Below, in pieces: positions 1,855-19,600 of a DNA stretch of 21,790 nucleotides (the first letter of the stretch is position 1; every line of letters begins with the position of its first letter). Origin of the DNA: an uncultured bacterium. GTDB lineage: Bacteria > CAYUVA01. The position numbers and the translations under genes were made by a program. Location: assembly GCA_964448115.1 (NCBI GenBank), contig CAYUVA010000016.1, forward strand, positions 62,001 through 83,790, read 5' to 3'. The notes under the pieces were generated by a model that had not been told where the DNA came from, made no database searches, and worked only from the letters and a program-made list of their open reading frames with translations.

Positions 1855-4227
1855 GTGAAATCAGGTAGATCTAATCGAATGTTTGCTTCGTTATTCATTC
1901 TTATTTTTGTTAGTGGCAGTTGCTTTGCTGATCTTTTTTCTCCCAAGAATGCAGCACAGTTCACATTGGTAAGAAATGCCAACCAATATAAAGGATGGGA
2001 CCAGGCTGTACTCGGAGGCCCGGTCGAGCTTAAGGATTCTAATCAGAGAACAATAGGATACCTATACCCAGTAATAAATGAGGAAATCGAAGTCGGTTAT
2101 ATCAGCGTAGGCGCATCGATCGAGTTTCCACCCGTTTACGAGTTCTCGGAAGATAGGACTCCCATTTCAAAGCTGAGAGACTCTGGTCTTGAACAAAGAG
2201 CTATCCAAGTCCTGGGTAGAGCCGAGGGGTGGGATCTTCTGTACTTCGGCGGGCTTGATTACTATGTGGCATTCTATGGCAATCAAAATAGGGTTGTCTT
2301 TAGCATCAATCGTCGCATAGAGGTCAGGGATGATCATCTTTTTTACAAGCAAGCTTTCCTTGATGATCGCTTGGCTAATACAGTTTTGGAAAACAAGAAT
2401 TTATGGTCCTGGATGAATGGTGCTGATGCAACTGATATCAAGGATAAGGCAGTATATCGGGTTCCGGGTCGAGAGGCATATATTTGGTATCGCGGGTGCG
2501 GACCTACCTCGTGTACTATGCTGCTAAATGTCTTTTATAATCAGGATCCCACTTACTTTGCAGACCTTCACATAAACGAGCATACTTTTAACTGGTACGG
2601 ACCCAATGGCTGGACAACGGTATTTATCGATCAGGGGCTGTGCGATCTCATCGCAAATTATTGCGGGGTCCCAACCCAGGGGGGATCTATGGAGCAGTAT
2701 GGTGTAACCATATACCAGATGCGGGATTCTACCAGAGATGTTGCTGCAAACAGGGGCTACAGCTTCACGGTTGGCATCCGCAGCTCTGATCCTGATTATA
2801 ATTATTACAAGACAGAGATAGATCAGAACGATCCGGTTGCATTCGGTATTTACAGTGATGGAAGCGGCAGTGGATACGATAGCCATGCCATCTTAGGCTA
2901 CGGATATAATTATGATGGGCCCCAGCGTTTCGCCTTGGTTTTCGATACCTGGGGAACTGGGGAGCATGCCTGGGCTATGAACGCATCAGGGAACGACTAT
3001 GACTTCATATATGTAGAGCCTCCCGGCGGGAGTGCAACAAGTACGCCGACAAGAACTCCCACCCAGGGAGCGACCAGCACCCCGACTCCTACCCAGCCAA
3101 CTTTTACGCCAACCCCTACCCAGGGAAGCGGAACCGTACTCAGTTGGAGCGGTGGAGACCCTGACGGGGACATGGTCAGGTATGATATCTACCTCGGTAT
3201 TACGAGTAATCCGCAACTGGTGGCAGACAATGTTCTAAATTCTTACTATAATCCGGGAGTTATGCAGGAAAATACGACCTATTACTGGAAGATAGTCGCC
3301 AAGGATGATTCAACGCAGACAATCGGTCCCTTGTGGAGATTTACTACTGGCTACCGGGAGCAGCCGACCAATACTCCGACCAGGACAGCTACACCGGGTC
3401 CGGGAACTCCAACTGATACTCCTACTAACACGCCTACTAGAACCAACACTCCAGGACCGGGCACCCCAACCGATACGCCCACCAGGACTCCAACAGCAAA
3501 TCCCTCTCACTCGCCCACCCCAACTGGCACTATAGTGCAGAACCACCCACCGGTAGTCCTTTGTGCTGGATATTGGGACACATTCTTGACCTGGGAAAAT
3601 GGTGGAATGGTCGATATTATAGCAGTTTGCTCAGATCCAGACTACCACTCGGTGAATAATGTTGAAATATTCTACCAGGGCATTCCGACCGGTGTTTTCA
3701 TACCTGCCTGGCCGCATCAGAGGGATGTATTTTGGCTCCAGGATGTCCCTGTCGAGGCCGGTTTCACTCCTCAGACCATTCTTGCAGAACTGGTACCAGA
3801 GGATGTAATGGTTACCGAGGGATATGCCTGGCCATACCTGCATGTGCCCAATACCTCAAGCCAAGAAGCTCAGCAAGCTGCCAGCGATACATCGGATCAA
3901 CCAGCAGAATCGACATCATTTATGCTCCAGCGCAAAAATATATTTGCCAAAGTTGTTGATCGGATTATAGGCATATTCCGTCCGGTTGTTTTGCAGCCGA
4001 CATCTTCAGGGCAAGCTAAAGATGTATCCTGGCTGGAGAAGCTAATAGTCCCTGAGCGAGGATTAAAGACAGGCGATGGACCCTGGGAGAAAGGGGACTC
4101 CATCAGTGGAATCTCGACAATGATATACTCAGCGGTTGACACAAATCAAAAGGCATACAATCAGCCGCCTTACGAGCCATCGAATCCGAATCCACCCGAT
4201 GGTGCAACTGGTGTAGATCCCAACTAG
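1855..4227 (+). CDS. Secreted papain-fold cysteine peptidase (C39-like/C10-like) with prodomain, Pro/Thr linkers, split FN3-like domain and GYWDT domain
   Basis: GTG start after SD GGAGGTG; signal peptide (~aa1-25). Spi-inhibitor-like prodomain (GYISVGAS..PPVYEFS). Putative triad C215 (WYRGCGPTS), H344 (SHAILGYGY), D364 (FDTWG). FN3-like body aa427-498; GYWDT domain aa563-664. Confidence 0.8.
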   Translation: MKSGRSNRMFASLFILIFVSGSCFADLFSPKNAAQFTLVRNANQYKGWDQAVLGGPVELKDSNQRTIGYLYPVINEEIEVGYISVGASIEFPPVYEFSEDRTPISKLRDSGLEQRAIQVLGRAEGWDLLYFGGLDYYVAFYGNQNRVVFSINRRIEVRDDHLFYKQAFLDDRLANTVLENKNLWSWMNGADATDIKDKAVYRVPGREAYIWYRGCGPTSCTMLLNVFYNQDPTYFADLHINEHTFNWYGPNGWTTVFIDQGLCDLIANYCGVPTQGGSMEQYGVTIYQMRDSTRDVAANRGYSFTVGIRSSDPDYNYYKTEIDQNDPVAFGIYSDGSGSGYDSHAILGYGYNYDGPQRFALVFDTWGTGEHAWAMNASGNDYDFIYVEPPGGSATSTPTRTPTQGATSTPTPTQPTFTPTPTQGSGTVLSWSGGDPDGDMVRYDIYLGITSNPQLVADNVLNSYYNPGVMQENTTYYWKIVAKDDSTQTIGPLWRFTTGYREQPTNTPTRTATPGPGTPTDTPTNTPTRTNTPGPGTPTDTPTRTPTANPSHSPTPTGTIVQNHPPVVLCAGYWDTFLTWENGGMVDIIAVCSDPDYHSVNNVEIFYQGIPTGVFIPAWPHQRDVFWLQDVPVEAGFTPQTILAELVPEDVMVTEGYAWPYLHVPNTSSQEAQQAASDTSDQPAESTSFMLQRKNIFAKVVDRIIGIFRPVVLQPTSSGQAKDVSWLEKLIVPERGLKTGDGPWEKGDSISGISTMIYSAVDTNQKAYNQPPYEPSNPNPPDGATGVDPN
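3364..3477 (+). repeat. Tandem 57-bp (19-aa) repeat x2, PTNTPTRT[A/N]TPGPGTPTDT
   Basis: Units 3364-3420 and 3421-3477: 18/19 aa identical, third codon positions mostly different. Confidence 0.9.
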
Positions 4228-4250
4228 GGTAGTGTCCTACCCTTTCATTT
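4226..4250 (+). terminator. Probable intrinsic terminator overlapping the peptidase stop codon
   Basis: AGGGTAG-tgtc-CTACCCT hairpin (4226-4243) followed by TTCATTT. Confidence 0.6.
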
Positions 4251-4366
4251 CCCTTTGGCTTGCCGCTGCCGTAATCGTATATATCCTCAAGCACAGCCTG
4301 GATGGGTTTGGATTGATCGTTAATGTTCTTGCCATTTCTTACTTCTTTTGAGATATTAACATCTTC

Positions 4367-4414
4367 GTGTTATTCTTAATGTTGTATGGAGAGTGCAACA
4401 TTGCTTGATAACAC
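4367..4414 (+). promoter_or_regulatory. Imperfect inverted repeat/stem-loop upstream of the solute-binding protein gene
   Basis: GTGTTAT(4367-4373)/ATAACAC(4408-4414) encloses AATGTTG(4378-4384)/CAACATT(4396-4402); GGAGA loop. Confidence 0.5.
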
Positions 4415-4436
4415 ACAATAAAATAAAGAGCCGATC

Positions 4437-5444
4437 ATGATGAGAAAGATCATTCAAATACTATTAGTCTTTTCTATCATTTTCTGGTTATCTGGGTGTA
4501 AAAAATCGGCCAACCAGAATGTAGTCAATATCTATGCTGGCGTTCTACCTGACGAGGTGCCAATCTATGTAAACCCGTTTATCGAACAAACTGGTATCAA
4601 GGTCAACTATGTAAGGCTTTCGGCAGGTGAGGCATTGGCACGCCTCAAATCTGAGGCAAAGAATCCTCAAGCCACGGTCTGGTATGGAGGGACTATTAAC
4701 GAGTTCATAGTGGCAAAGAACGAGGGATTATTGACACCATATAAATCTCCGAATGCAGAGATATTACGACCCGCCTTCAAGGACGCTGATGGATATTGGA
4801 CCGCCTTTTACTTCGGTGCCCTCGGGTTCGCGGTCAATCCCGACTTCATTAAGCGCACAAAAGCCCCTATTCCTGAGTCCTGGCAGGATCTGCTCAAGGA
4901 TGACTACAAGGGAGAGATCACCTTTGCCTACCCATACTCAAGCGGCACCGCTTATACATTGCTATTTACACTGGTTACCTTGATGGGAGAAGATGAGGCA
5001 TTTTCTTATATGAAGGAGCTGGATGAGAATGTTCATCACTACAATCGCTCAGGTACCGCGGCAGCCAACCAGGTCGGTCTAGGCGAGATGGGCATCGGCA
5101 TCGCATTTTCTCAGGATATCCTGCGCACCAAGACTAAAGGATACGATATCATCCTCTCCTTCCCCAAGGAGGGCACCGGATACGAGATAGGCGGTGTGGC
5201 TTTGGTAGCAGGTGCTCCCAATCAAGACCTAGGCAAAAGGTTCATCGACTATGTGCTCAGTCCCCAACACCAGGACCTATTCGCCAAGAGCGGATCATAT
5301 CGAGTCGCCCTGCATCCCCAAGCCAAGATACCCGAAGAATATGTTACCGCTGATGAGGTTGACCTTATTGACCTCAACTTCACCATCGCTGCCAGGCAGA
5401 AAGATCGCCTGGTCAGGCGCTGGCAAAGAGAGATCATGCGCTAG
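4437..5444 (+). CDS. ABC transporter substrate-binding lipoprotein (Fe3+/sugar-phosphate/2-AEP-type, AfuA/FbpA-like)
   Basis: Lipobox LSGC; TGIKVNYVRLSAGEALARL, PESWQDLL, SSGTAY, FPKEGTGYEIGGVALV motifs of this SBP family. Confidence 0.9.
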   Translation: MMRKIIQILLVFSIIFWLSGCKKSANQNVVNIYAGVLPDEVPIYVNPFIEQTGIKVNYVRLSAGEALARLKSEAKNPQATVWYGGTINEFIVAKNEGLLTPYKSPNAEILRPAFKDADGYWTAFYFGALGFAVNPDFIKRTKAPIPESWQDLLKDDYKGEITFAYPYSSGTAYTLLFTLVTLMGEDEAFSYMKELDENVHHYNRSGTAAANQVGLGEMGIGIAFSQDILRTKTKGYDIILSFPKEGTGYEIGGVALVAGAPNQDLGKRFIDYVLSPQHQDLFAKSGSYRVALHPQAKIPEEYVTADEVDLIDLNFTIAARQKDRLVRRWQREIMR

Positions 5445-5483
5445 GTTCATCTCGGAACCATATAGAACAAAGCTTTCCAGGAA

Positions 5484-7400
5484 ATGAAATCGATCATAGT
5501 TGGGACTGCTGGTCATATCGATCACGGCAAGACCGAGCTGGTTAAAGCTTTGACAGGCATAGACACCGACCGGCTTATCGAGGAAAAAGAGCGCGGCATC
5601 ACCATCGATATTGGCTTTGCTTACCTTTACCCAAGGGATGACCTGGAGATAGGAATCATAGATGTCCCCGGGCACGAGCGCTTTGTCGGAAACATGTTAG
5701 CTGGTGCTTTTGGAATGGATCTTGTCATCCTGGTCATCGCTGCTGACGAGGGCGTGATGCCACAAACAAAAGAACACTTGGCTATTTGCAGCTATCTTGG
5801 AGTAGAAGATCTTATTGTCGCTATCACCAAGATAGATATGGTTGATAAAGAGCTTGTCGAGCTTGCAATCGAGGAAGCAGAGGAATCTTTATCAGCAACC
5901 CGCTTCAAAGCTGCTCCGATAATACCTGTCTCCAGTGTTACCCATGAGGGAATCGATAAGTTGCTTGACCAGGTCATGACAAGGGCATCAGCGATCAGTA
6001 ATCGCACCTTTAATGAACCATTTCGCCTTCCAATAGACCGGGTCTTTACCCTCAAGGGCTTCGGTGTAATTGTTACTGGCACCTTGGCAAACGGCAGCCT
6101 TTCAAAAGGAGACCAGGTGCTGATCCTGCCAGTAAACATCCAGACCACCATTCGCAACCTACAGGTACATGGTAAGGATGTAGCCACAGCTTATGCGGGC
6201 GAACGCACCGCCTGCAACCTGCGCGGGGTGAATAAAGAGCAGGTAGCTCGCGGTCATGTAATTGTTCAGCCTAACGCTGATTACAGCGAGACTAGACTGC
6301 TCGATGCTCGCATATCCCTTTTGAACGATGCTTCTTATGAGATCCGCCATCAGCAACGAATTCGAGTTCATCTTTGGACTAGCGAGGTCATGGCAAGAGT
6401 TTATCTTATGGATAATAAAAACCTTAAAAGAGGTGAGACTAGTTACGCGCAGCTTAAACTAGAGAGACCTGTTGTGGCAAGATTCAATGATCCTATCATC
6501 ATCCGCAGCTACTCGCCGGTAACAACTATTGGTGGCGGAGTTATACTCGATAATCATCCAAGACCCTTTAGGCGAAGCGATAAGATGCGCCCCAAGCTGC
6601 TTCACCAACTATGCGAAGGCTCAGGTAAAGAAAAAATTTCTGCTGCCGTGGAGCTGGCTGGAAACTCTGGAATAGAACTAAAAGCTCTTAGTCAAAACAT
6701 TAGAATTGAGTATAACAACGCACTCGCGGTTGCACATGAGCTGGTAAAAGATGGAGCACTTGCGGTTATAAGAGGTGATCAGGATCTGCTTCTATCGCGA
6801 GCTGCTATAGACCGCCTGAAGAAAAGGCTAAAGGATTATCTTGGCAAGTTCCACCAGCGTTTCCCCACCCGTCGCGGCATACAAAGAAACGAGCTGCTTC
6901 AATCTTTTGGGAAAAATGTTAGACCATTTATTCTCGATTACCTGCTAACGGAGTTGATAGAAGGCGGCGAGATTAACAAGGATAATGACTATCTCAAGCT
7001 GCCTGGTTTCAAGATAAACATATCTCCTAGGTTGCAAGAAAATATGAAAAAATTGGAGCAAGAACTTTACAATGCGGGGATAGATCTATTGACCATGAAA
7101 CAATTAACATCAATGTTCGATACCCCAACCGACTTCAAGGAGGCAGCGCATCTTCTTTTAGAAAAAGGTAATATCGTGAAATTAAGCTCCGAGTATTACA
7201 TACATGCAAAACATTATAATGCAGCTAAGGACAAGATCATCAATTACTTGCAGCAACGCAAGAAAGCTAATGTTGGCAGCATTCGCGATATGCTCGGTGG
7301 AGCGCGCAAGGCAACCATTCCCTTATTGGAATACCTTGACAAGGTTGGGATAACGGTTCGCCAGGGCAACGAAAGGACCTTAAAGGAACATATTGATTAA
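5484..7400 (+). CDS. selB: Selenocysteine-specific elongation factor SelB
   Basis: 638 aa. [47 protein letters not shown]-terminal winged-helix region ending [12 protein letters not shown]. Confidence 0.97.
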
Positions 7401-7481
7401 GACCTTGTTTGAATTATGTAAAGATTTTGACTATGCTAATAGCTAGGCAAATATTTTGATATAATCAAGGAGTGAAACAAG

Positions 7482-8552
7482 ATGCCCTTGATCTCACGGG
7501 AAGCCCCCCAGAATGTTGCTGTGGTGCTCAACCCAAATGCGCGGAAGGTCTCCAAGGTGGTATTCGAGTCAGTTACCAGATACCTCCCCAAGGCACATGT
7601 ATTCTACTCCAACACCTTTGAGGAGGCTCGCAATGCGATCAAGGAGATAGTGGAGAAGAGATACGAGCTGGTACTCTGCGGCGGCGGGGATGGTACTATT
7701 GTTAACCTTATCACCCAGCTTCGTAATCGAGTTTTACAGTTAAACCAAAACTTGAGAAAATCATCTTTATCCTCCGCTAATATCAAGAATTATTCCTTAC
7801 CAAAGATCGGGGTTATGCCCCTTGGCACCGGTAATGGGCTAGCCGGCTTGACCAATAGCCCTAGAGGTATAAAAACCTTGGAGAAGCTAGCTCAAGGCGG
7901 CGAATTCAAGACCAGAGAGCTTGGCTTCGTGGAGACCGATGGCAAGATGGCGCCATTCGCCGGGGTCGGTTGGGATGCGGAGATATTAAACGATTATATC
8001 GAGTTCAAGGAAAGATTTAAGGATCATCCGATATTAAAATATGTTAGCAAAGGATTGATAGGCTATCTTTTAGCCGTATTTGGAATTGCAATCCCAAGAA
8101 TACTTCCCCAGCAGGATAAGGTAACCGTAAGGATCACAAATCTTGGAAACAAGGTCTATTTTATAAACGAGGATCGAAAACCTGTTCCTGTCCAGATCGA
8201 ACCTGGGGAGCTTTTATACCAGGGTCCCGCAAATGTCGTACTTGCTAGCACTGTACCCTATTATGGATTTAAGCTGAAGATCTTCCCCTATGTAAACAGC
8301 GTTCCCAACACTTTCCAGCTTCGAATAGCAAAAGTTCGGGTCATGGATGGTTTGCTAAATATAATCCCTATTTGGCTAGGCACTTTCCAACACGAGAAGA
8401 TCATCGACTATATGGTTGAAAGTATAGAGGCAGAGTTCTCCAGGGAGATGCCCTTCCAGGTAGGTGGTGATGCGGAAGGTAGGAGAAAGAAGATACGAAT
8501 CTCCTTTGGAGAGCAGAAGGTTTATATTATCGATTTCACCGAAGATCAGTAG
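7482..8552 (+). CDS. Diacylglycerol kinase catalytic-domain family lipid kinase (YegS/DagK/SphK-like)
   Basis: LNPNA, GGDGT, PLGTGNGLA, GVGWDA, FQVGGD motifs; SD AAGGAG. Confidence 0.9.
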   Translation: MPLISREAPQNVAVVLNPNARKVSKVVFESVTRYLPKAHVFYSNTFEEARNAIKEIVEKRYELVLCGGGDGTIVNLITQLRNRVLQLNQNLRKSSLSSANIKNYSLPKIGVMPLGTGNGLAGLTNSPRGIKTLEKLAQGGEFKTRELGFVETDGKMAPFAGVGWDAEILNDYIEFKERFKDHPILKYVSKGLIGYLLAVFGIAIPRILPQQDKVTVRITNLGNKVYFINEDRKPVPVQIEPGELLYQGPANVVLASTVPYYGFKLKIFPYVNSVPNTFQLRIAKVRVMDGLLNIIPIWLGTFQHEKIIDYMVESIEAEFSREMPFQVGGDAEGRRKKIRISFGEQKVYIIDFTEDQ

Positions 8553-8659
8553 AGATTATATCAATCTCTTCCAGGCATCTTACAATAGATAACTAATTGT
8601 CTTTATTCTTTATTAGTTGAAACCTTATGCCTAATGATATTATATATAAGTAATATCGT

Positions 8660-11113
8660 ATGTCCAGGGTGATTAAAAGGCTGCTGATAGTTGATGTTCT
8701 CAGGGAGGATCTGGAGCTACTAGCTGAGCTTTTATCCGAGGCAGGCTATTCGATCAAGATAATCCATGAACCTACAGAGATCCCCCGCATGGTGGCACGA
8801 CTTAAACCGGAGCTTATCCTGATAAACTCCATCCCCGAAACTCAGACCTACGATAAATACTACAAAACATTGAAGGATGCCTTCAAGGAATGCAATTTCA
8901 TTATCGGAGTGGAATCAAAACGGCGACATGAGATCTCAAGCGTGCTTGGAAAAATGTCAGACCGCGATGCGGTAGTAGCAAAACCCTATGACTTTGACCG
9001 ACTCATCGAGGTTATGGACATGACCCTAGGCTCCTTTGTGGATAGCGACCATGAAAGCTTCGAGCAGACAATGGGATTCACCATCGCCAGCCTGCTTAAA
9101 CAGAAACCTAGAAAAAAGAAAAGCAAGAATGATGATATGGACAATTTTGCCGGGCTTGGTGAATTCATGACCGATGGCGAGATATCCGAGGTGCTAAATG
9201 TTGAGGAGATTTATAAACCACAAAGTGAAATAACCGAGGAAACCAGTTGGACTGCGGCTAATATCGAATTTGGCAATTATATCCTGGTGGCTAAGATCGA
9301 AGATAAAGGCATGACAGAGAGTTTTCTCGCTAAGTACAAGGGGGCAGAGGGCTACGAGAAGATCGTTATCCTACAGCGGATTCTGCCTGAATTTCAGTGG
9401 GATAACGAGGTGGTTGAGATGTTCATCAAGCAGAACCGTATCGCCGCCAGCTTCAACCATCAGAACTTAATCCAGGTTTATGAACTTGGTGAACATGATA
9501 GCCAGGTTTATATAACTACTGAATTCATTCAAGGCAAAAGCCTGCGCCAGCTCCTGCAGGTATATTCGATGCGCAATGAGAGGCTTAATCCAGATCTTGC
9601 TCTCTACATAATAAGCAGGTTACTGCTCGGCTTAGATTATATACACAGACAGAAAGACCCAGATGAGCCGGATAAATCGTTGGTACATAGAGCCTTGGAG
9701 CCGGATAACATCTACTTAACCTACTCTGGCGAAATCAAGATAGGCGGCTTTGGGATAACCAAGGGGCTTATTGATATCTCTCGCTCTGAGGCACAAAGCG
9801 GCATAGGCAAGGTGCTCTATATGTCCCCGGAACAAGCCTGGGGATATGAATTAGACCAGCGTAGCGATATCTTCGTAGCTGGTCTTATACTTAGCGAATT
9901 GCTTACCTCGATACCCCCCTACTCCAGCAAGAAAACTGTTAAGGTCATCCAAAAGGCGCGCAGCGGCAAGTTTCGACCCCCAGTATTTTTTGAGCCTGAG
10001 ATACCGGTGGAGATCAATAACCTGGTGGAAACCGCCTGCCGTAAACAACCGGACAGCAGGTTCCAAACCGCACAAGAGATGTATCAAGCTGTGCAGGATG
10101 TCGCACGGAAAAGAGGTCTGCATATTACTTCTTTTGACCTTGGCGAGATCGTTCGATCTCAATTCAAGAGTAAAATAAAAAAAGAAATGGATCTGCTTGA
10201 TACTATCCATAACCAAAAGGATAAAGCTGCTGTGGATCAAGTATTCGACTCAGATATATTCAGGCTATCTGATGGGAAACTAACCGACTCCTTTTCTGTG
10301 GATGGGATAGATTCATACTTGAATGACCTAGCATATAAAATAGCAAGTGGGGAGGATGTATCAGCAATAAAGGAGCAATTAGATATCGACTCAAAAGAAT
10401 ATGAGGGTGCTTCAGACCAACAACCTGTCGAATCGCCCATCGCAGAAAAACAGCCCCCTTCAAATGTAGCCGCCCAAAAGCAGGAAGATAAACCACAAAA
10501 AGAATATCCCCAACCTCAAATCGATGATCTTAACCGGAATAATATTCAAACAAACGCTGAAGACACCGCCCCGATAGATCTCATTTCTTCAACAGATACA
10601 ATAAGCAGGGAAATAAAAAAAACTGGCCAGAAACCGCTAAGTCGCTTGGGCATAATAGGATTGGCTTTGATAATAGGTCTTGGAGTCAGCGGCTTGGTAA
10701 TCGCCGGCTTATGCTTATTCAAGGTAATAGCCGAAATGAACCAAAGTCCGCCAGCATCATCCTACAGCATTAGCCACTCCAAGTCAGCCATTGAAACTAA
10801 AAAGCCAATCCCTGGAGAATACATAAAGAAACCTGACCAACCACCAAAGGTGCTCAAAGCCCTGCATCCAACAACCAATGAATGGCCGGCTGCGGAAACC
10901 AAGAATTGCGGTACTGTGCTATTAAAATTAAAAGTAGGTCCCGATGGCATTCCTACAGAGCCGAAAATACTCTACACAGATTTTGATACCCAAAAAATCA
11001 ATGACCTTGCTCTTAGAAGCATCAAGTTCTGGAGATTTGCACCTGCGACCCATGATGGTGTTCTTGTAACCAGCGATGTAATCGTAAAGGTCAGGATCGA
11101 GAAACCTCAATAA
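8660..11113 (+). CDS. Membrane protein: degenerate receiver domain + Ser/Thr pseudokinase + TM helix + TonB C-terminal domain
   Basis: REC fold aa6-122 (LLIVD..PELILIN..KPY). Kinase fold ~aa204-480 (FGNY..GAEGYEK..YMSPEQ..RSDIF). One hydrophobic helix (LGIIGLALIIGLGVSGLVIAGLCLF). TonB_C pattern (GTVLLKLKVGPDG..ALRSIKFWRFAPA..G). Confidence 0.85.
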   Translation: MSRVIKRLLIVDVLREDLELLAELLSEAGYSIKIIHEPTEIPRMVARLKPELILINSIPETQTYDKYYKTLKDAFKECNFIIGVESKRRHEISSVLGKMSDRDAVVAKPYDFDRLIEVMDMTLGSFVDSDHESFEQTMGFTIASLLKQKPRKKKSKNDDMDNFAGLGEFMTDGEISEVLNVEEIYKPQSEITEETSWTAANIEFGNYILVAKIEDKGMTESFLAKYKGAEGYEKIVILQRILPEFQWDNEVVEMFIKQNRIAASFNHQNLIQVYELGEHDSQVYITTEFIQGKSLRQLLQVYSMRNERLNPDLALYIISRLLLGLDYIHRQKDPDEPDKSLVHRALEPDNIYLTYSGEIKIGGFGITKGLIDISRSEAQSGIGKVLYMSPEQAWGYELDQRSDIFVAGLILSELLTSIPPYSSKKTVKVIQKARSGKFRPPVFFEPEIPVEINNLVETACRKQPDSRFQTAQEMYQAVQDVARKRGLHITSFDLGEIVRSQFKSKIKKEMDLLDTIHNQKDKAAVDQVFDSDIFRLSDGKLTDSFSVDGIDSYLNDLAYKIASGEDVSAIKEQLDIDSKEYEGASDQQPVESPIAEKQPPSNVAAQKQEDKPQKEYPQPQIDDLNRNNIQTNAEDTAPIDLISSTDTISREIKKTGQKPLSRLGIIGLALIIGLGVSGLVIAGLCLFKVIAEMNQSPPASSYSISHSKSAIETKKPIPGEYIKKPDQPPKVLKALHPTTNEWPAAETKNCGTVLLKLKVGPDGIPTEPKILYTDFDTQKINDLALRSIKFWRFAPATHDGVLVTSDVIVKVRIEKPQ

Positions 11114-11124
11114 TAGGAGTGATT

Positions 11125-11766
11125 ATGGAAAATATGTTCCGCGTGGATGAGAAGTATATTCACCTAGGTGAGGATGTTTTTATAGATCAAACTGCAATCA
11201 TCGGCTATCGTCCCGGCAGGAATCTGGAAGAAATCGACCTGTATATCGGCGATAATGCGATGATACGTTCCAACACGGTGATCTATGCCGGTTGCAAGAT
11301 CGGGGTAGGCTTACAGACTGGGCATAATGTGGTGATAAGAGAACAAAACCAAATCGGCGATAATCTCCAGGTTTGGAACAACACGGTAATCGATTATGGC
11401 TGCGTGCTGGGCAATAACATCAAGTTGCACTGCAATATCTATATTGCTCAGTTTACTACTATGGAAGATAATGTCTTCATGGCGCCGGGGGTAACGGTTG
11501 CAAACGATATGCATCCCGGCTGCCAGTTCTCCAATGAATGTATGAGAGGACCATACATCGAGAAGGGAGTCAAGATCGGGGTGAATGTAACCTTGCTTCC
11601 TTTTATTCGGATCGGGAGGCGATCGCTAATCGGAGCCGGCTCGGTAGTTACCAGGGATATCCCGGCAGAATCTGTGGTCTATGGCAATCCTGCAAAGGTG
11701 AGAGGATCCATATATGACCTCAAGTGCGTCAGTGGCATAACAGATAAGCCATTCTATCGGATTTGA
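11125..11766 (+). CDS. Hexapeptide-repeat (left-handed beta-helix) acyltransferase, WbpD/WxcM-like sugar N-acetyltransferase family
   Basis: Repeated [LIV]G-x4 hexapeptides, FMAPGVTVAND, IGAGSVVTRDIP..VYGNPAK. ATG 11125 fits SD AGGAG better than GTG 11119. Confidence 0.88.
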   Translation: MENMFRVDEKYIHLGEDVFIDQTAIIGYRPGRNLEEIDLYIGDNAMIRSNTVIYAGCKIGVGLQTGHNVVIREQNQIGDNLQVWNNTVIDYGCVLGNNIKLHCNIYIAQFTTMEDNVFMAPGVTVANDMHPGCQFSNECMRGPYIEKGVKIGVNVTLLPFIRIGRRSLIGAGSVVTRDIPAESVVYGNPAKVRGSIYDLKCVSGITDKPFYRI

Positions 11767-11769
11767 GCA

Positions 11770-13185
11770 ATGTACAAAGGTGAAATCACGGAAGGAACTA
11801 GCTGCTCGAAAGGATTAAAATGCGACCTTTACGAGCTTACCATGGCTGCCGGGTATTTTCTGAAGGGTATGAATTACACTGCTGTATTCGAGGTCTTCGT
11901 GCGCCGTATGCCGCTGGAACGATCATATTTCGTATTTATCGGATTGGAGCAGGTGCTTGAATTTATCCGTGAATTTCGCTTCTCGGAGAAGGATATCGAT
12001 TTCTTGAGATCCCTGGAGATCTTCAAATCGACCCCAGATGAGTTCTTTGATTTTCTAATTAAACTTCGATTCACTGGCGATGTTTGGGCAATGCCAGAGG
12101 GAAGCTATTTTTTTGCTAATGAGCCTGTCCTTCAAATTAAGGCACCTTTGATCCAGGCGCAGTTGCTCGAATCGGCGATATTGGCAATCCTTAACCTCCA
12201 ATGTACTGTAGGCACCAAGGCTCATCGCATACTGCAAGCAGCAAAGGGTAGAACGGTAGTCGATTTTGGTATGAGGAGAGCGCACGGATTCGAGGCTGGC
12301 TTATATGCAGCTAGAGCGAGCTACATCGCCGGCTGCAACGGTACCTCAAACTGCCTGGCTAGCAAGCTCTTCGGAATCCCGACCTATGGAACCACCGCTC
12401 ACTCATGGGTTATGACACACCAGGATGAGAGGACATCCTTTGTCAATTTTCACGATCTATTTCCTGAGGACTGCACCTTGATCGTTGATACCTACAATAC
12501 CATCAAGGGAATCAGGCAGGCTATCGATGCTGTGAAGGGTATAACCGCAATTCGGTTGGATAGCGGTAACATTGTCAAGCTGAGCAAGAAAGCTAGGAGA
12601 ATGCTGAACAAGGCTGGGATGAGGGATACAAAGATCATCGCCAGCGGGAACCTGGATGAGTACGAGATTCAAAGATTACTCTCCAAGAAAGCCAGGATTG
12701 ACCTCTTTTTTGTGGGAACCTCCTTGGTAACCGCCCCTGATTCTCCAAGTCTCGACTGTGTATATAAACTGGTGGAACAAGAGGACAAGGACGGTAATCC
12801 GATATTCAAAACAAAGACAAGTCGAGATAAAAAGCTATATACAGGACAGAAACAGGTTTACCGGTTCTATGACCGCAAGGGAAGAATGAAGAAGGATTTA
12901 ATTAAACTGGCACATGATAAAGCGCCCAAGAAAGGCAAGCCTCTTTTAGAAAAATATATGGAAAATGGAGAACTCGTGCATCCACTTCCAGATTTGGAGG
13001 AAATACGATCATCAGTGCATGAGAAGGATGAATGTCTTAAACATAGATACAGAAGATTAACCGATGCTGATGAATATCCGGTTCATTTCAGCAAGCACAT
13101 AAAGTCCCCCAGGCGAGCCAAAAAACTCTTTAACAAACTTAATCAAAAGGTTACTCCAAAAGAGAACCGTACTCCTGATAATTGA
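11770..13185 (+). CDS. pncB: Nicotinate phosphoribosyltransferase
   Basis: DLYELTM, FEVFVRRMP, DFGMRRAHG, GTSN, GTTAHSW (phospho-His), VDTY, IRLDSG, ASGNLDE, VYKLVE. Confidence 0.95.
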   Translation: MYKGEITEGTSCSKGLKCDLYELTMAAGYFLKGMNYTAVFEVFVRRMPLERSYFVFIGLEQVLEFIREFRFSEKDIDFLRSLEIFKSTPDEFFDFLIKLRFTGDVWAMPEGSYFFANEPVLQIKAPLIQAQLLESAILAILNLQCTVGTKAHRILQAAKGRTVVDFGMRRAHGFEAGLYAARASYIAGCNGTSNCLASKLFGIPTYGTTAHSWVMTHQDERTSFVNFHDLFPEDCTLIVDTYNTIKGIRQAIDAVKGITAIRLDSGNIVKLSKKARRMLNKAGMRDTKIIASGNLDEYEIQRLLSKKARIDLFFVGTSLVTAPDSPSLDCVYKLVEQEDKDGNPIFKTKTSRDKKLYTGQKQVYRFYDRKGRMKKDLIKLAHDKAPKKGKPLLEKYMENGELVHPLPDLEEIRSSVHEKDECLKHRYRRLTDADEYPVHFSKHIKSPRRAKKLFNKLNQKVTPKENRTPDN

Positions 13186-13209
13186 CAAGCACGGCGCAAG
13201 TCATAAGAT
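13182..13209 (+). promoter_or_regulatory. Possible internal sigma70 promoter for the EndoQ-UvrD gene
   Basis: TTGACA 13182-13187 (overlaps pncB stop), 16-bp spacer, TAAGAT 13204-13209; no SD before ATG 13219. Confidence 0.45.
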
Positions 13210-13218
13210 CCCTGTGAG

Positions 13219-16200
13219 ATGTTCTACGCAGACCTCCATGTTCATTCATATCTATCCCGGGCAACAGCCAAGGACTTGGACCTGGAGCACCTCAACTACT
13301 GGGCGCAACTTAAAGGCATAAGCGTCGTTGGAACCGGCGATATCACCCACCCCGAGATGCTAGCCCAGATTCAGCAGAAGCTGGAACCGACTGGTAATGG
13401 GTTATTCACCTTGAAAAGGGAGTATGCTGAATCAATAAAGGATCCCCTTCCAGCCGGCTGCAAACAAAAGGTCTATTTCATGCTCCAGGGAGAGATAAGC
13501 ACCATCTATAAGGCAAAGGGGAGCACCCGCAAGATTCATCATGTCGTCTGTTTCCCCGACATAGAATCGGTACGGAAACTACAAACGATATTGAAGGGAC
13601 TGGGGAATATCACCTCGGATGGAAGGCCTATACTTGGTTTGGATTCAAGGAAGCTGTTGGAGATAGCCCTGGAATGCTGCCCGGATGTGCTATTCATACC
13701 TGCGCATATCTGGACCCCCTGGTTCTCTGCTTTAGGCTCCAAGTCCGGCTTTGATTCCATCGAGGATTGCTATGGGGATCTTAGTGAGCATATTTACGCG
13801 GTGGAGACCGGCTTGTCCTCAGACCCGCCAATGAACTGGATGTTAAGCAGCCTCGATAAATACAGGCTCATCTCCAATTCTGATGCTCATTCGCCGGCAA
13901 AACTCGGTCGCGAGGCTAATATCTTTGATTGCGAGTTAAGTTACCTAAGCATAGTCGAGGCGCTAAAGACCGGCACCGGGTTCCATGGCACCATCGAATT
14001 TTTTCCAGAGGAAGGCAAGTACCACTATGATGGACATCGTAAGTGCCATAAACGAATGGAACCACTGGAGACAATAAAGCAAAATGGACGCTGCCCTTCT
14101 TGTGGAAAGCCGGTAACCATCGGAGTGTTGCACAGGGTATTTGAGCTTGGCGATCGTCGCTATGGCTACAAACCCGAACAGGCTGCGCCATATAGGTCGT
14201 TGGTCTCGCTGGAATCGATCATCTGCGAGGTCTTGGGACTCAAAAGCGCAACCAGAAAGGTCAAGTCGCTTTATCACAATATTATTGAACGGTTCGGATC
14301 TGAGTATCAAGTGCTCATGGATGCTGATCTCGATAGATTGAGCAGTAATTACGGGGATCTTCTCGCAGAGGGGATCAGCCGCGTTCGTGAAGGCAGGCTT
14401 CACATTGAAGCTGGTTACGATGGAGAGTTCGGCACCATCAATATCTTCACCCCGCAGGAGAGAGCGAGTTTTGCCACCAAGACCTCTTTGGGGCAGACTA
14501 TGGATAGAGCAGCTCAAGCGACACGATATGAAAAACAAAATAAGAAAAGGGAAGATCTCCAGACCCAAAAGCTTACTATATCTGCCCATACAAAGAAGGT
14601 TCAGATGGAGATACCGCTATCCAACCCGGATGAGCTGCTTGCTAACCTGAATCCAGAACAACGAGCTGCAGCAACATACTTTGAGGGTCCTCTTCTCATC
14701 GTAGCCGGTCCAGGAACCGGTAAAACACTCACCGTTACCCATCGAATTGCTTACATGATTATGCAAGGCGCTCTCAGGGCTGAAAATGTATTGGCTGTAA
14801 CCTTCACCAATAAAGCCAGCCAGGAGATGAGAGAAAGGCTATCCAGGTTATTAGGGGGCACCGATGATGCTGATAGGTTGACCATTGCAACCTTCCACCG
14901 CTTTTGTCTTAACTTGCTGCTTAATAATAAAGAATCAGCCGGTCTTGAGGATAACTTCAGCATCTTGGATGATACAAAGAGAGATGAGCTTCTAAAAGGC
15001 TTAAAGAGGGCTATGCTAAGTAAAGAAGTAATGCTGAGCGCTGATGATATTGGGAATACGATAAGCCATTACAAGCAACGAATAGTATATCCGGAATATA
15101 ATTCATTAGTAGATAAGGATTTTTTTCCTATCTATCAGGCGTATCAGAACATCCTGCTGCAAGAGAATTCGATCGACTTCGATGATCTAATCGCTAAATC
15201 AGTCCTTTTGCTACAGGAAAACCCGAAGATACTCGAGGAATATCAACATCGATTCAGCTCCATAACCGTTGATGAATACCAGGACATCAATCAGGCTCAA
15301 TACAGACTGACCAAGTTACTTGCAGGCAATGGCAAGGGGTTATGTGCCATCGGGGACCCCAACCAGGCAATCTATGGATTCAGAGGTGCTGATAGGTCTT
15401 ATTTCAACAGGTTCAGATCGGACTATCCTACAACAAAGGTTATCCCACTTACCACCAACTATCGATCAACCAAGATAATCCTGGAAGCCTCAAGGCATGT
15501 CATGTCCAAGTCCCAAGATTGCCTCGATACAAGACTTGAAACTGTTATCAAGGAGGGAGCTCGCATCAATATTTGCCCCTGCGCAAGCGATCGCCAGGAG
15601 GCTGAGCAGGTGGTGCATACTATTGAGCGCCTGGTGGGAGGAACCAGATTCTTCAGTATGGATAGCGGTAGAAGCGAGGGGCATGAATCCATGCAAGATC
15701 TTGGATTCAAAGATATCGCAGTCCTTTATCGCCTCAGAACACAAGGCGCTTGCCTTCAGGAAGCGTTCGATCGTTCGGGAATTCCATATCAGATAATTAA
15801 AGAAAAAGCCTTGAATCTAACCCCAGAAGATAGACTTCTACATAGCTTAATAAACCTGTTATACAATCCAAAGAGCCGATATCATTTTCTCAATATCCTT
15901 GCAAGTCCACTAGTCGGACTTTCACCAAAGGAAATCGACCAGGTAAAAAACGACCTTTTCTGGGGAATTAGGTGCCACCGGTGGGAGATCAAATATCCCA
16001 AGAAAAGCTGGAAGCTCGATAAATTCAAATCTGCAAACCTGGTTGAACTAGGCAAGATCATGGAATCGCTAGCCCGATCTTCTATCAATAATACTCCAGG
16101 TGTCCTCCTCATGGATATCCATAGAATAATCAAGGAAAAGATAAAACTTCGCGGCGATGCATCATTCTATGGAAAATCAAATGAGTCGATCTCTAGATTA

Positions 16201-16656
16201 CTGCCGCTAGCAAAATCCTGTAAAACCCTAGGCGAGCTTGTGCACTGGTTAGCATTACATCAAGAAATAGACAACCTGGACTTCACTGCTGATAAGGTTT
16301 CGTTACTGACCTTACATGCTGCAAAAGGATTGGAGTTCCAAGTCGTATTTATGGTCGGTTGCGAGGAGGGTATCTTGCCACTTGGGCTGGATGATCTAAA
16401 GATGGACGCTGATCCAGAAGAGGAGAGAAGACTTTTTTATGTCGGCATGACCCGCCCAAAGCAGCTTCTATACATTAGCTATGTTCAAAAAAGAAGGCTT
16501 TATGGCAAGCTAAGAGAGTTATCGCCATCGACCTTTCTCGATGATGTAAAAGACTCGCTGAAAAAATATATAGCCACCACCCATAGGTCGAATAAACGAA
16601 AGCCCAAGGATCGCTTCAAGCCGCTGAGCATCTTCGACTTCATTGAGGATAAATAG
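13219..16656 (+). CDS. Endonuclease Q-family PHP domain fused to UvrD/PcrA-type SF1 helicase
   Basis: PHP/EndoQ motifs DLHVHS, GTGDxTHP, DGRP, PAHIWTPW, ETGLSSD, SNSDAHS, EGKYHxDGHRxC, CPSCG, GYDGEFG. Helicase motifs LNPEQ, AGPGTGKT, TFTNKA, VDEYQD, GDPNQAIYGFRGA, NYRS, TLHAAKGLEF, EERRLFYVGMTR. Confidence 0.93.
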   Translation: MFYADLHVHSYLSRATAKDLDLEHLNYWAQLKGISVVGTGDITHPEMLAQIQQKLEPTGNGLFTLKREYAESIKDPLPAGCKQKVYFMLQGEISTIYKAKGSTRKIHHVVCFPDIESVRKLQTILKGLGNITSDGRPILGLDSRKLLEIALECCPDVLFIPAHIWTPWFSALGSKSGFDSIEDCYGDLSEHIYAVETGLSSDPPMNWMLSSLDKYRLISNSDAHSPAKLGREANIFDCELSYLSIVEALKTGTGFHGTIEFFPEEGKYHYDGHRKCHKRMEPLETIKQNGRCPSCGKPVTIGVLHRVFELGDRRYGYKPEQAAPYRSLVSLESIICEVLGLKSATRKVKSLYHNIIERFGSEYQVLMDADLDRLSSNYGDLLAEGISRVREGRLHIEAGYDGEFGTINIFTPQERASFATKTSLGQTMDRAAQATRYEKQNKKREDLQTQKLTISAHTKKVQMEIPLSNPDELLANLNPEQRAAATYFEGPLLIVAGPGTGKTLTVTHRIAYMIMQGALRAENVLAVTFTNKASQEMRERLSRLLGGTDDADRLTIATFHRFCLNLLLNNKESAGLEDNFSILDDTKRDELLKGLKRAMLSKEVMLSADDIGNTISHYKQRIVYPEYNSLVDKDFFPIYQAYQNILLQENSIDFDDLIAKSVLLLQENPKILEEYQHRFSSITVDEYQDINQAQYRLTKLLAGNGKGLCAIGDPNQAIYGFRGADRSYFNRFRSDYPTTKVIPLTTNYRSTKIILEASRHVMSKSQDCLDTRLETVIKEGARINICPCASDRQEAEQVVHTIERLVGGTRFFSMDSGRSEGHESMQDLGFKDIAVLYRLRTQGACLQEAFDRSGIPYQIIKEKALNLTPEDRLLHSLINLLYNPKSRYHFLNILASPLVGLSPKEIDQVKNDLFWGIRCHRWEIKYPKKSWKLDKFKSANLVELGKIMESLARSSINNTPGVLLMDIHRIIKEKIKLRGDASFYGKSNESISRLLPLAKSCKTLGELVHWLALHQEIDNLDFTADKVSLLTLHAAKGLEFQVVFMVGCEEGILPLGLDDLKMDADPEEERRLFYVGMTRPKQLLYISYVQKRRLYGKLRELSPSTFLDDVKDSLKKYIATTHRSNKRKPKDRFKPLSIFDFIEDK

Positions 16657-16666
16657 CTACCTGTAG

Positions 16667-19600
16667 TTACTCGTCCACCACCAGGAATGGCCAGGGCTTA
16701 CTAGCCAGCATATCTGTGCTAGTCGCGATGAGTTCCAACGGTACCAGCATCGGTGTTAATCCACCCTGCAATGCAGCGGTGAATCCCCAGAAGCCGTCAT
16801 CAACGCCGAAGTCTCCGTGAGCACCGTCATCATATAACAGGATTCCAGTGGGTCCCATGTAGTAGATCTCTACGCTACCCACAATGATGTACTGGTCATC
16901 GGGAGCATAAGCAAGTAGTATCAGGTTACCGCCTGCGCTAGCCGTGAGCCTTGTATCCCAATACCCTCCGATCAGTATGGATGGATAATGGGCAGGCACT
17001 GTCGGCGTAGCCGTTACTGTAATCGTAGGTGTCGGACTTGGAATCTCGGTTTCTGTTGGGGTTGGCGTTGCAGTAGGCTCAACGGTGGGGGTTAAGGTCG
17101 GTGATGCGCTGGGTGCTTCAGTGTTGGTGGGAGTGAAGGTTGGAGTCTTGCTGGGAATTGGAGTATTGGTCGGCACATCGGTAAATGTTGATGTTGCCGA
17201 AGGTGTTACCGTCGGGGTGGAGGTATCCGGTGGCGTATCTGTAACCGTTGGCGTAAAGGTCGGAGTTACCGTACTGGTTGGTGTCCTGGTCGGGGTAAGG
17301 GTCCGGGTGTTGGTCGGGGTTATCGTATCGGTCGCTGTCGGAACCAAGGTGGGAGTATTTGTATAAGTCGGCGTTTGTGTCCAGGTCTCTGTGGGTACGA
17401 GTGTCATGGTCGATGTCGGCGTAACTGTTGGCGTATTAGTCGGCGTGTAAAAGATCTCCTCGTACTCGACCCAGATCTCATAATAATAATTCTCGCCGTA
17501 ATTTCCCGCTTGCTGCTCTTTAACCATCAAGTAATAAGTATCATTGCGATCAAACTCGTAGTCGATCCGGGAGTTAGGCTCCTCATCATAGTCTGCGTTT
17601 TCAGCCAGCTTGGTGGTTCCATCGCTGTCATACAAGTATAAGTAAGTATCGCATAGAGATCCCAAGTTATCGGTCTGTATGGTGTAAAGTCTTTGCACTT
17701 GTCCGCTGAACCTCATCCAGTCTCGATCCAACGCATTGCATATATAGTGTAGCTGCGCGGTACCGTCGGTAAGGATCTCCTTGGCAGTTGCGAAAGAGTC
17801 ATCCGGTTCATAGATATCGACATCCGAGCATGGCGTTTGAGTCGGAGTATTGGTTACAGTTGGGGTTAAGGTGGGAGTCAAGCTCGGAGTTCTGCTTGGG
17901 GTCATCGATGGCGTCATACTGGGTGTCTTGGTAGGGGTGAATGTATTGGCTGTGGTCGGTGTTATCGTCGGTGTTGCAGTCGGGACCAGGGTCGGAGTCG
18001 CGCTCGGAGTAACTGTCGGCACACCGGTAAAGGTATTAGTTGGAGTTACCGTCATGGTTGGAGTGCGAGATGGCGACATGGTTGGAGTCAAGGTCGGTGT
18101 GCCGGTCTTGGTTGGCGTCCAGGTCGGAAGGAAGGTCATGGTCGATGTCGGCGTCAAGGTTGGGCTTCGAGTCATGGTTGAAGTGGGGGTTCTGGTCGGA
18201 GTGCGCGTATTGGTCGGCGTCGGGGAAGGTGTTGATGAGGGAGTACTGGTCGGTGTGTGGAAGATCACCTGGATGTCATAATAGGCATCGTTGCCCCAGC
18301 CACCTGCCTCATCAATGATCTTAATATAGTAAGTATCATCACTAGGCATAGAATAACTGATCAGAGATTCCGGTCCACCCTCAAAATCACTATTCTCCGC
18401 AAGAAGGTCCATTGAGGAGTTATACAAGTACAGATATGTATCCGCTTCAGAGCCAAGATTGCTAGTCCATATAATATAACTTATATCGGCAAAGCCGCTG
18501 AACTTATGCCAATCCTGATCATTATCGTTACAGAAATAATGTAGATAAGATACCCCAATAGTCAATATCGGCTTTGCAGTTGAACTATCATTGTCCGGCT
18601 CGAACAGATCAACCTCAACACAGGCTGTGTTGGTGGGGGTCATGGTCGGTGTTGATGATGGAATGGCGGTATCTGTAGCGGTCAGGGTTGGGGTTAAAGT
18701 AGGCGAGCTTGTCCCGGTTGCGGTCGGAGTCAGGCTCGGTGTCAGCGATGGCGTGCTAGTGGGGATATCGGTTATAGTAGGTGAAACGGTCGGCGTAAGG
18801 CTAGGCGTAAGTGTGGGAGTGAATGTCGAGGTGCTGGTTGGGGTGCTGGTCGATGTCATGGTGGGTGTATCAGAAGGCGTGCTGGTCGGAGTTACAGATG
18901 GAATCTGCGTGCTGGTATTCGTAGGAGTTAAGGTGGGAACATCGGTCGGCGTGTTAGTATATGTTGGCGTCAATGTCGGCGTATTACTTGGTGTCCAGCT
19001 CGGTTCGCCGCTAGGTGTGGGCGACAAGGTAGGAGTGTTAGTAGGCACGCCGGTATTAGTTGCAGTTGGAGTTAAGGTCGGCGTCAATGATGGGGTATCC
19101 GTGGGCAGGGAAGTCGATGTAACCGTCGGTGTTATTGTCGCAGTCGAGGTCGGTATATCGGTTGCAGTACTGGTTGGGGTACCGGTAGGCAGATCGGTCG
19201 CTGTATTGGTCGGGGTGTAGGTGGGTATCGCCGTTGAGGTATTGGTCGGGGTTGAGCTGGGAAGCGTGGTGGCAGTATTGGTCGGCGTTAGCGTCGGAGA
19301 ATTGGTCGGTGTAGGCGAGATGGTTGGTGTATCCGATGGCGTATAGGTCGCCATCCCCGATGGAGTTACTGTCGGTGTATCTGTTGGGGTCGGTGTGCTG
19401 GTAAAAGTGTAAGATGGAGTCGATGATGGCGTACTTGTCGGAGTGATGGTAGGCAAGGTAGTTGGCTCCATAGTCGGTGTGGGGGTCATCGTTGGTGTCT
19501 CGCTCGGTAGCGGCGTTATGGTAGGCGTGTCTGTGGCGGTCATTGTAGGTGTATTAGTAATAGTCGGCGTGTTGGTTGGGGTCGGGGTATAATATAGATT

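Follow-up and report, generated by a model that had tools for sequence, protein, structure and literature searches.

A C-terminal tail matches the missing first strand of an FN3-like domain

The window analysed here, 21,790 nucleotides of a contig from an uncultured bacterium (CAYUVA010000016.1, positions 62,001 to 83,790 of the forward strand), contains a gene for a 790-residue protein (1855-4227, + strand, ending in TAG), whose coordinates and sequence were confirmed as exact. In this protein the segment that usually opens an FN3-like domain is found at the other end of the chain. The domain body, strands B to G (residues 427-498, 3133-3348, + strand), starts with TVLSW and lacks strand A, and the last 22 residues (769-790, 4159-4224, + strand), a proline leader followed by strand A, end in PN directly before the stop codon. 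The layout recurs in five paralogs and in two foreign proteins, and it reads as a circular permutation. The permuted domain is probably closed in cis by the protein's own tail, a reading that is weighed below against intermolecular alternatives.

The match between the tail and the missing segment was measured with a 98-position hidden Markov model (HMM) built from 594 instances of the intact domain, taken from 119 homologs in other organisms, many of which carry a precomputed match to PF25788 (Ig_Rha78A_N). The window protein meets this FN3-like 'YYWK' profile over strands B-G (LSW, DPDGD, YDVY, TTYYWKV and GPxWxFTT), its body covering positions 24-98 with 88.0 bits. The tail aligns to positions 1-20/22 and scores 29.0 bits against the strand-A sub-HMM. 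When tail and body were joined artificially, one full-length match to positions 1-98 was obtained with 119.6 bits, as the original prediction had expected for a join of residues 769-790 to 427-498. Joining the native upstream 22 residues to the body gave 87.9 bits, i.e. no gain over the body alone, and 20 shuffled-tail joins averaged 92.1 bits and did not exceed 96.7. The tail match to the missing segment is far beyond chance. These scores bear out the proposal that the tail supplies the first segment of the domain, and the break falls cleanly at the A-B turn (tail 1-22, body 24-98). The usual site of leader and strand A is occupied by a PT linker (residues 391-426, 3025-3132, + strand); the 26 residues upstream of the body score 5.4 bits against the strand-A sub-HMM, compared with a family median of 30.9.

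The split layout recurs in the genome and beyond

A six-frame scan of the organism's own genome (3.98 Mb in 86 contigs; completeness 94.45%, contamination 0.46%) revealed five further open reading frames (ORFs) with a body lacking strand A and a terminal strand A. The resulting six paralogs lie on six contigs, all with intact frames. In the five, a secretion signal is followed by a head, a PT linker (except in C61; paralogs are named here by such handles where they must be told apart) and a body starting with 'T[YVI][LM]xW'. A second PT linker, an immunoglobulin-like (Ig-like) domain that we call AGY and a further linker come next in four of the five, and C61 runs from strands B-G through a linker to strand A, AGY being entirely absent. 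The chains end in 'N.PP..PSNP.P..GA[TV].V.PN', zero to two further residues and the stop. Their heads are diverse: the caspase family Peptidase_C14 (1.8e-17), the subtilase family Peptidase_S8 (1.2e-33), a weak trypsin match, Kelch and a weak Y_Y_Y match. In all six paralogs the tail corresponds to profile positions 1-20/22 and the body to 24-98, and joining them gains 19-32 bits, against 0-4 bits for the native upstream 22 residues. A lipobox-like signal, judged by eye, is present among the paralogs in C61 only. The long PT linker through which the body is entered in all paralogs except C61 may be O-glycosylated; two paralog genes adjoin genes for glycan-handling membrane proteins, namely PMT_2-like, Wzy_C-like and a Polysacc_synt flippase (L003 2112-3938, - strand; L004 2369-3796, - strand, and 8157-9566, + strand).

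Strong matches to the domain occur in eight ORFs of this genome, six of them split and two intact (contigs C17 and C34); the intact domains lie near the N-terminus and their proteins have no tail. Pfam and NCBIfam scans named neither body nor tail of the window protein, and PF25788 gave no match to it at E <= 1. Scores of this family stay below its curated cut-off of 27.4 bits for paralog C25 (17.5) and even for the intact C17 domain (25.8). Sequence searches of PDB with the body returned distant FN3 domains only (neogenin, DCC), and the same search with the intact C17 domain returned no match. Domain callers thus miss such bodies and tails, and Pfam reports none here.

A profile running from AGY to the tail was compared with 1.84 billion representative proteins and gave 682 hits. 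Among the best 150 of these, five proteins end in the tail: the window protein, three paralogs and P0181. The last, 1077 residues long and from a metagenome contig, consists of an S8 head, a body without strand A, AGY, a linker of ~120 residues and the tail. Its head is only 35.6% identical to that of C25, its nearest paralog in the genome, so the permuted layout is old. In a second foreign protein, P0158, the order is body B-G, a linker of ~115 residues, a pre-A motif, strand A ending in 'VYPN', a PT linker and a terminal AGY. The displaced strand A of P0158 thus lies mid-chain, and its permuted domain is a self-contained internal unit. The search proposed in the original prediction, for further tail-ending proteins or strand-less bodies, thus yielded the five ORFs of the genome together with P0181 and P0158.

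Body and tail are strictly paired. In an upstream strand-A screen of all proteins collected (574 instances), the median was 30.9 bits and 21 instances fell below 8 bits; these include all eight split proteins, and the other 13 are, by eye, divergent A strands or misplaced anchors. Each of the eight strand-A-less bodies (six in the genome, P0181 and P0158) comes with a single orphan strand A, which lies downstream in that chain. Conversely, true orphans among 559 strand-A matches occur only in split proteins, the weaker tail of C25 lying below the screen threshold. No tail-only protein was found among the 70,724 frames of the genome, and no protein there combines several bodies or tails as a scaffold or anchor would.

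Wider searches for the tail gave little. The DNA pattern 'P.P..GAT.V.PN-stop' has two sites in the genome, and its 4 + 4 matches in collections of genomes and metagenome contigs were all chance by translation; the pattern is narrow, missing GAV tails and the ends PNP, PNQ and PNPD, as in P0181. The tail profile run over 200 other genomes, kin at domain level only, gave 15 matches in six genomes, and the 10 that were checked were all contiguous A strands. Word-index homology searches from P0181 and P0158 returned only the queries themselves, both being single hits from short contigs.

The layout is not an assembly artefact

As the genome is a metagenome-type assembly in 86 contigs, an assembly artefact or a decaying pseudogene might be suspected. 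Separately assembled contigs from three runs of one sample cover 2900-3426, 3293-3649, 3549-4500 and 4156-4500 with no difference, bridging both junctions and the PT repeats; this sample may be the assembly's own source, so the per-run contigs do not count as independent of it. One run's contigs lack the PT-linker region 3427-3548. Against an artefact also stand the six loci on six contigs with the same layout and intact frames, the two foreign proteins that share the layout, and the tail itself, which is the best conserved segment. We regard artefact or decay as next to impossible. The earlier view that the gene is not misassembled holds, and the counter-case raised with it, a one-off decayed rearrangement, is contradicted by the six paralogs, the two foreign proteins and the conservation of the tail.

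The original prediction had drawn its case against misassembly from a terminator hairpin overlapping the stop codon. Such a hairpin is present (4226-4253, + strand; stem 4226-4243, then a T-run) and folds at -10.1 kcal/mol, yet as an argument it is statistically weak: z = -1.42, 18 of 200 shuffles fold equally well, and a scan found three terminator-like sites where 2.6 were expected. Read-through of the stop codon was rejected, since the frames beyond the six stops show nothing FN3-like.

Normal-order relatives point to a circular permutation

Five normal-order proteins (C17, C34, P0028, P0056 and P0104) begin with a signal, a variable region with an amphipathic segment and a motif 'W(E)...(F/Y)SAVD...Y', after which leader, strand A and body follow unbroken. 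In the split proteins these segments recur, their order unchanged, after the body. In the window protein, these are a conserved amphipathic connector segment (residues 689-714, 3919-3996, + strand), homologous to the N-terminal segment of C34, and a pre-A motif (WE...YSAVD...Y; residues 743-768, 4081-4158, + strand), which directly precedes strand A in the normal-order relatives too. When the 85 residues preceding strand A in six split proteins were compared by hhalign with those in five intact ones, the last 31 columns aligned with Prob 81% and E 1.2e-5. An HMM of the pre-tail linkers, tail excluded, matched residues 45-144 of C34 (E 4e-4 in a set of 121 sequences), and residues 463-571 of P0158 aligned to residues 11-135 of C17 (E 1.6e-6).

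Since normal-order proteins carry the same pre-A segment at the N-terminus, the split layout is explained as a circular permutation. Every element is present once, in rotated order and in one chain in all eight proteins; canonical-order homologs exist, and the pre-A segment has moved along with strand A. These sequence comparisons support well the conclusion that the domain arrangement is a conserved circular permutation. The ancestral unit would have comprised the pre-A segment, the proline leader with strand A, and strands B-G of a PF25788-type 'YYWK' domain. After rotation, the chain would enter at strand B from the PT linker and end after strand A. Two normal-order relatives in the genome (L006 4028-5824, + strand, and G000:C34:21703-23199, + strand) combine the intact FN3-like domain with tandem AGY and have no enzymatic head.

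Mean pairwise identity among seven split proteins is 63% in the tail, 43% in the body, 38% in AGY and 17% in the linker. In a tree of the eight permuted bodies and 60 thinned intact ones, all eight fall into one supported clade (96/86) together with two intact domains, one of them reading 'V.P.T.L.W' at the turn. Some 500 further intact instances were not included in this tree, its columns are few and its bootstrap had not settled. Duplication and truncation of tandem copies are the most likely origin of the permuted form. C29 (L003) and C53 (L004) carry 'DPN[KR]' just before strand B, overlapping the '.PN' end of the tail, which may be an overlap scar of such an event.

Each tail covaries with the body of its own protein

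Covariation was examined by mean-field direct coupling analysis (DCA) of 565 unique intact instances (effective number ~500), with pairs at least five positions apart being ranked. The leader and strand-A segment is strongly coupled to strands B, F and G: the pairs (10,93), (6,91), (12,76), (7,80) and (12,27) rank 2nd, 6th, 9th, 13th and 17th, and the prolines and aromatic residues at coupled positions are invariant in the six paralogs. Tail-by-body coupling scores of natural pairs range from 124 to 195. Native upstream segments of 22 residues gave -19 to 33, and shuffled tails gave means of 27-40 and a maximum of 122.

When the eight tails were assigned to the eight bodies in all ways, 3 of 40,320 assignments scored at least as high as the natural one; for the genome's own six the figure is 2 of 720. 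Under three pseudocounts and after removal of sequence-near pairs, the number varied between 3 and 28 of 40,320. In the negative control with upstream segments, 34,018 of 40,320 assignments reach the natural one. Intact domains held out in five rounds behaved as the split ones do (2-12 of 40,320; cognate scores 181-190 vs 159-172). A Lys at tail position 6 is always paired with Asp at body position 92 (C1 and C29). By these couplings, each tail is co-adapted with the body of its own protein.

The same data bear on whether the tail complements the body at all. The body might be stable without strand A, perhaps via linker residues, with the tail being an independent C-terminal motif from a truncated repeat that serves, perhaps, as a sorting or recognition tag or as a binding site for another partner. 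HMMER does partly align the PT linker to leader positions in C1 and C25, the invariant terminal PN is atypical for the family, and AGY, normally terminal (134 of 152 ORFs), here precedes the tail, which leaves room for a different sorting fate. However, native upstream segments score near zero with both the strand-A sub-HMM and the couplings and give no cognate signal, whereas the tails give one similar to what held-out intact domains show. On the body, the leader's contact partners are invariant, and tail and body co-occur in 8/8 proteins, never alone. Absence of complementation is accordingly rated as decidedly unlikely.

Closure in cis and intermolecular alternatives

We regard closure of the permuted domain in cis as probable. 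After secretion, the C-terminal 22 residues would fold back onto the body of the same chain. The leader prolines would lie against the conserved Trp/Tyr of strands B, F and G, with strand A completing the edge of the sheet. The fold-back would close a non-covalent loop around the AGY domain, with the ~100-residue linker in the G-to-A connection, and the closed unit would form a folded stalk between the variable enzymatic head and AGY. This reading is favoured because a normal-order module exists, making the arrangement a circular permutation; because the displaced strand of P0158 is internal and C61 is permuted with no AGY domain to enclose; and because bodies and orphan A strands occur one to one per chain in 8/8 proteins, with no donor-only or acceptor-only protein. 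It is favoured also because each tail fits its own body best, because the connectors are long and flexible (25-124 residues after AGY), and because the genes examined nearby have no chaperone- or usher-like member in common. Of the ten ORFs that flank the other five paralog genes and those around the window gene, none belongs to a chaperone or usher family, and no family recurs among them. Long flexible connectors favour intramolecular docking.

Several observations weigh against closure in cis. Docking in cis and docking in trans between identical chains would leave the same covariation, and the cognate advantage is small (166 vs 156, 9.4 units in total), derives mostly from leader positions 2 and 6, and is negative for C29. 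The family is tiny, with eight proteins seen. In seven of the eight, strand A lies 0-2 residues from a free C-terminus, and the terminal PN is invariant where intact domains have Pro at that position in 2% of cases; a purely cis permutant is not obviously in need of it. The heads include a clear protease (S8), a caspase-family domain and two weak matches (C39-like and trypsin-like), and these could act as a trigger. Type V pilins, moreover, are described as self-complemented in cis before strand exchange (PMC13655056).

Donor-strand chaining in trans, all forms taken together, is unlikely. In its homotypic form, the tail would enter the body of a neighbouring copy of the same protein, giving head-to-tail enzyme chains made without chaperone or usher, possibly from a cis-latched precursor first opened by PT-linker cleavage. 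The body is one strand short, the donor is C-terminal and free in 7/8 proteins, the tails are highly conserved, and cognate preference fits this form as well as it fits cis. The terminal PN, set against 2% Pro in intact domains, also agrees with trans docking, as do the heads, four of six matching peptidase families, two of them weakly. A precedent is the passage of type V pilins from self-complemented monomer to trans exchange upon protease cleavage, as described in PMC13655056. Yet the strand of P0158 is internal, connectors of 25-124 residues plus a domain do nothing against cis docking, and normal-order relatives show an ordinary single domain. Among the ten ORFs next to the other five paralog genes there is no dedicated assembly gene in common, and none lies beside the window gene; nor does the genome encode a cap, adaptor or donor-only protein. 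We consider homotypic chaining rather unlikely.

Promiscuous chaining, with any tail fitting any body so that six enzymes are strung on the cell surface like a cellulosome, draws on the presence of one plug-and-socket module common to six different heads and on non-cognate scores that are still high (mean 156 vs 27-40 for shuffled tails). Selection on a common interface would not be expected to produce a cognate assignment that beats all but 2 of 40,319 others. In addition, there is no scaffold or anchor protein with multiple bodies or tails, and the two foreign examples are isolated hits from short contigs. This form is very unlikely.

A mixed course is conceivable, in which the tail would be docked in cis on secretion, and PT-linker cleavage, perhaps by the protease heads, would free the tail or groove for intermolecular strand exchange; we hold this quite unlikely. 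If true, exchanged donor strands would link secreted enzymes into chains or tether them at the cell surface with no need of a chaperone, an usher or a lipoprotein anchor, and a phylum that has hardly been sampled would have put a principle like that of type V pili to use in displaying enzymes. The original prediction had offered a cis lasso and a trans chain side by side, under the name of a candidate donor-strand complementation system. The evidence favours the former.

Relation to known split and permuted folds

Permutation of a first strand has a parallel in C2 domains, where topologies I and II are described as differing in that the A strand is circularly permuted to the C-terminus within the same fold (PMC12051499). 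As there, the first strand of a beta-sandwich is supplied in the other form by the C-terminal end. The present domain is, by contrast, FN3-like; an Ig-like domain and/or a connector of ~100 residues lies between G and the displaced strand, and both orders occur in one genome. Discontinuous domains in general are common, being reported for ~40% of multidomain proteins (PMC4621036). In the RTX adhesins MpIBP and FrhA, an Ig-like domain is described as formed from two separated segments with a folded domain nested between them (PMC10865825). AGY is similarly nested between strands G and A in six of the eight proteins (not C61 and P0158). RTX adhesins keep the strand order and carry the insert in a loop, whereas here A comes after G and the second segment is the extreme C-terminus.

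For tandem repeats, PMC6863430 describes swaps in which the C-terminal part of repeat 1 and the N-terminal part of repeat 2 make up a circular permutant; the permutants equal the central domain of such swaps, and natural permutations are called common. This fits the duplication origin proposed above. The swap is a misfolded state of tandem repeats, and the domain described here is a fixed, conserved gene product.

With donor-strand pili, the split proteins have in common an incomplete Ig-like fold, here lacking strand A, and a terminal donor strand; dedicated assembly genes were not found among the neighbours examined, nor donor-less tip or adaptor subunits in the genome. In chaperone-usher pilins, their engineered self-complemented forms and SpyTag/SpyCatcher, an incomplete Ig-like fold is completed by a separate strand, and a tethered strand docks in cis. 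The strand missing from chaperone-usher pilins is G, and both chaperone and usher are needed; the Spy system is man-made and covalent. Here the missing strand is A, and no chaperone or usher was found among the neighbours examined. In type V pili (FimA/Mfa1), too, the donor strand is C-terminal, the acceptor is a beta-sandwich and the monomer has a state in which it complements itself (PMC13655056). Their pilins are described there as lipoproteins that polymerise once a protease has removed an N-terminal anchor strand, and their tip pilins as being without donor strands. In the present proteins nothing points to polymerisation; they lack an anchor strand that could be removed, and a tip or adaptor class is absent.

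Our literature search, which did not extend to supplements, turned up no description of an FN3 domain permuted or split in this way. The suggestion that the arrangement had not been described therefore stands for the exact arrangement; its ingredients are known, namely A-strand permutation in C2 domains and split Ig-like domains in RTX adhesins. What is added is a natural, conserved circular permutation of FN3 type, with a whole domain nested in the closing connection and both orders in one genome, and it offers a clean case for the tolerance of beta-sandwiches to rotated connectivity and for the course of permutation by duplication. Should docking of the tail prove reversible or intermolecular, the module would offer protein engineers an interesting plug-and-socket pair from nature, 22 + ~75 residues in size.

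Other parts of the protein, the AGY family and neighbouring genes

The window gene starts with GTG, 6 nucleotides downstream of GGAGGT. Its product is ordered as signal peptide, C39-like head, PT linker, strand-A-less FN3-like body, PT linker and AGY Ig-like domain, followed by a linker (residues 665-768) with a helix and the pre-A motif, the strand-A tail and the stop. The signal-peptide-like segment is hydrophobic (residues 9-25, 1879-1929, + strand) and was judged from the sequence by eye. The head shows a weak match to Peptidase_C39_2 (residues 213-359, 2491-2931, + strand; E 0.0021, 19.1 bits against a cut-off of 24 bits), with a CGPTS Cys motif (residues 212-219) and a SHAILGYGY His motif (residues 342-351). 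The second PT linker spans residues 499-564 (3349-3546, + strand), and AGY (AGYWDT...WPYL), nested between strand G and the displaced strand A, spans residues 565-664 (3547-3846, + strand).

An HMM of AGY (99 positions, 7 seeds) was used to survey this 4-Mb genome. The 'AGY[WM]DT...WPYL' Ig-like domain occurs there in 152 ORFs, as 187 domains, 33 ORFs having two or more, and in 134 of the 152 it lies within 12 residues of the stop. Besides 3547-3846 (+ strand), the window carries it at 16667-21697 (- strand). Among foreign representatives, 99 of 148 end within 10 residues of the WPYL-like motif. Apart from a faint match to choice_anch_X, AGY has no match in Pfam, NCBIfam or PDB. It has the look of a C-terminal domain for sorting or anchoring that has yet to be named, and this very large family of AGY-ending proteins is worth a study of its own. 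Searches of the genome for SprA of the type IX secretion system (T9SS) and for Por_Secre_tail gave no match; control genomes were equally silent.

A sister repeat family is present in the foreign proteins P0248, P0232 and P0260, as arrays of 8-13 repeats. It has the same proline leader and strand A, with 'LSVDVSDPDGD' instead of 'LSWxGGDPDGD', and so is without the strand-B Trp.

The remaining window neighbours (472-1719 and 4437-16656) are housekeeping genes unrelated to the permuted domain. They include rho, a solute-binding protein, selB, a DAG-kinase-like protein, a Ser/Thr kinase, NAPRTase and a UvrD-type helicase with a long N-terminal extension. From the presence of selB it follows that the organism uses selenocysteine.

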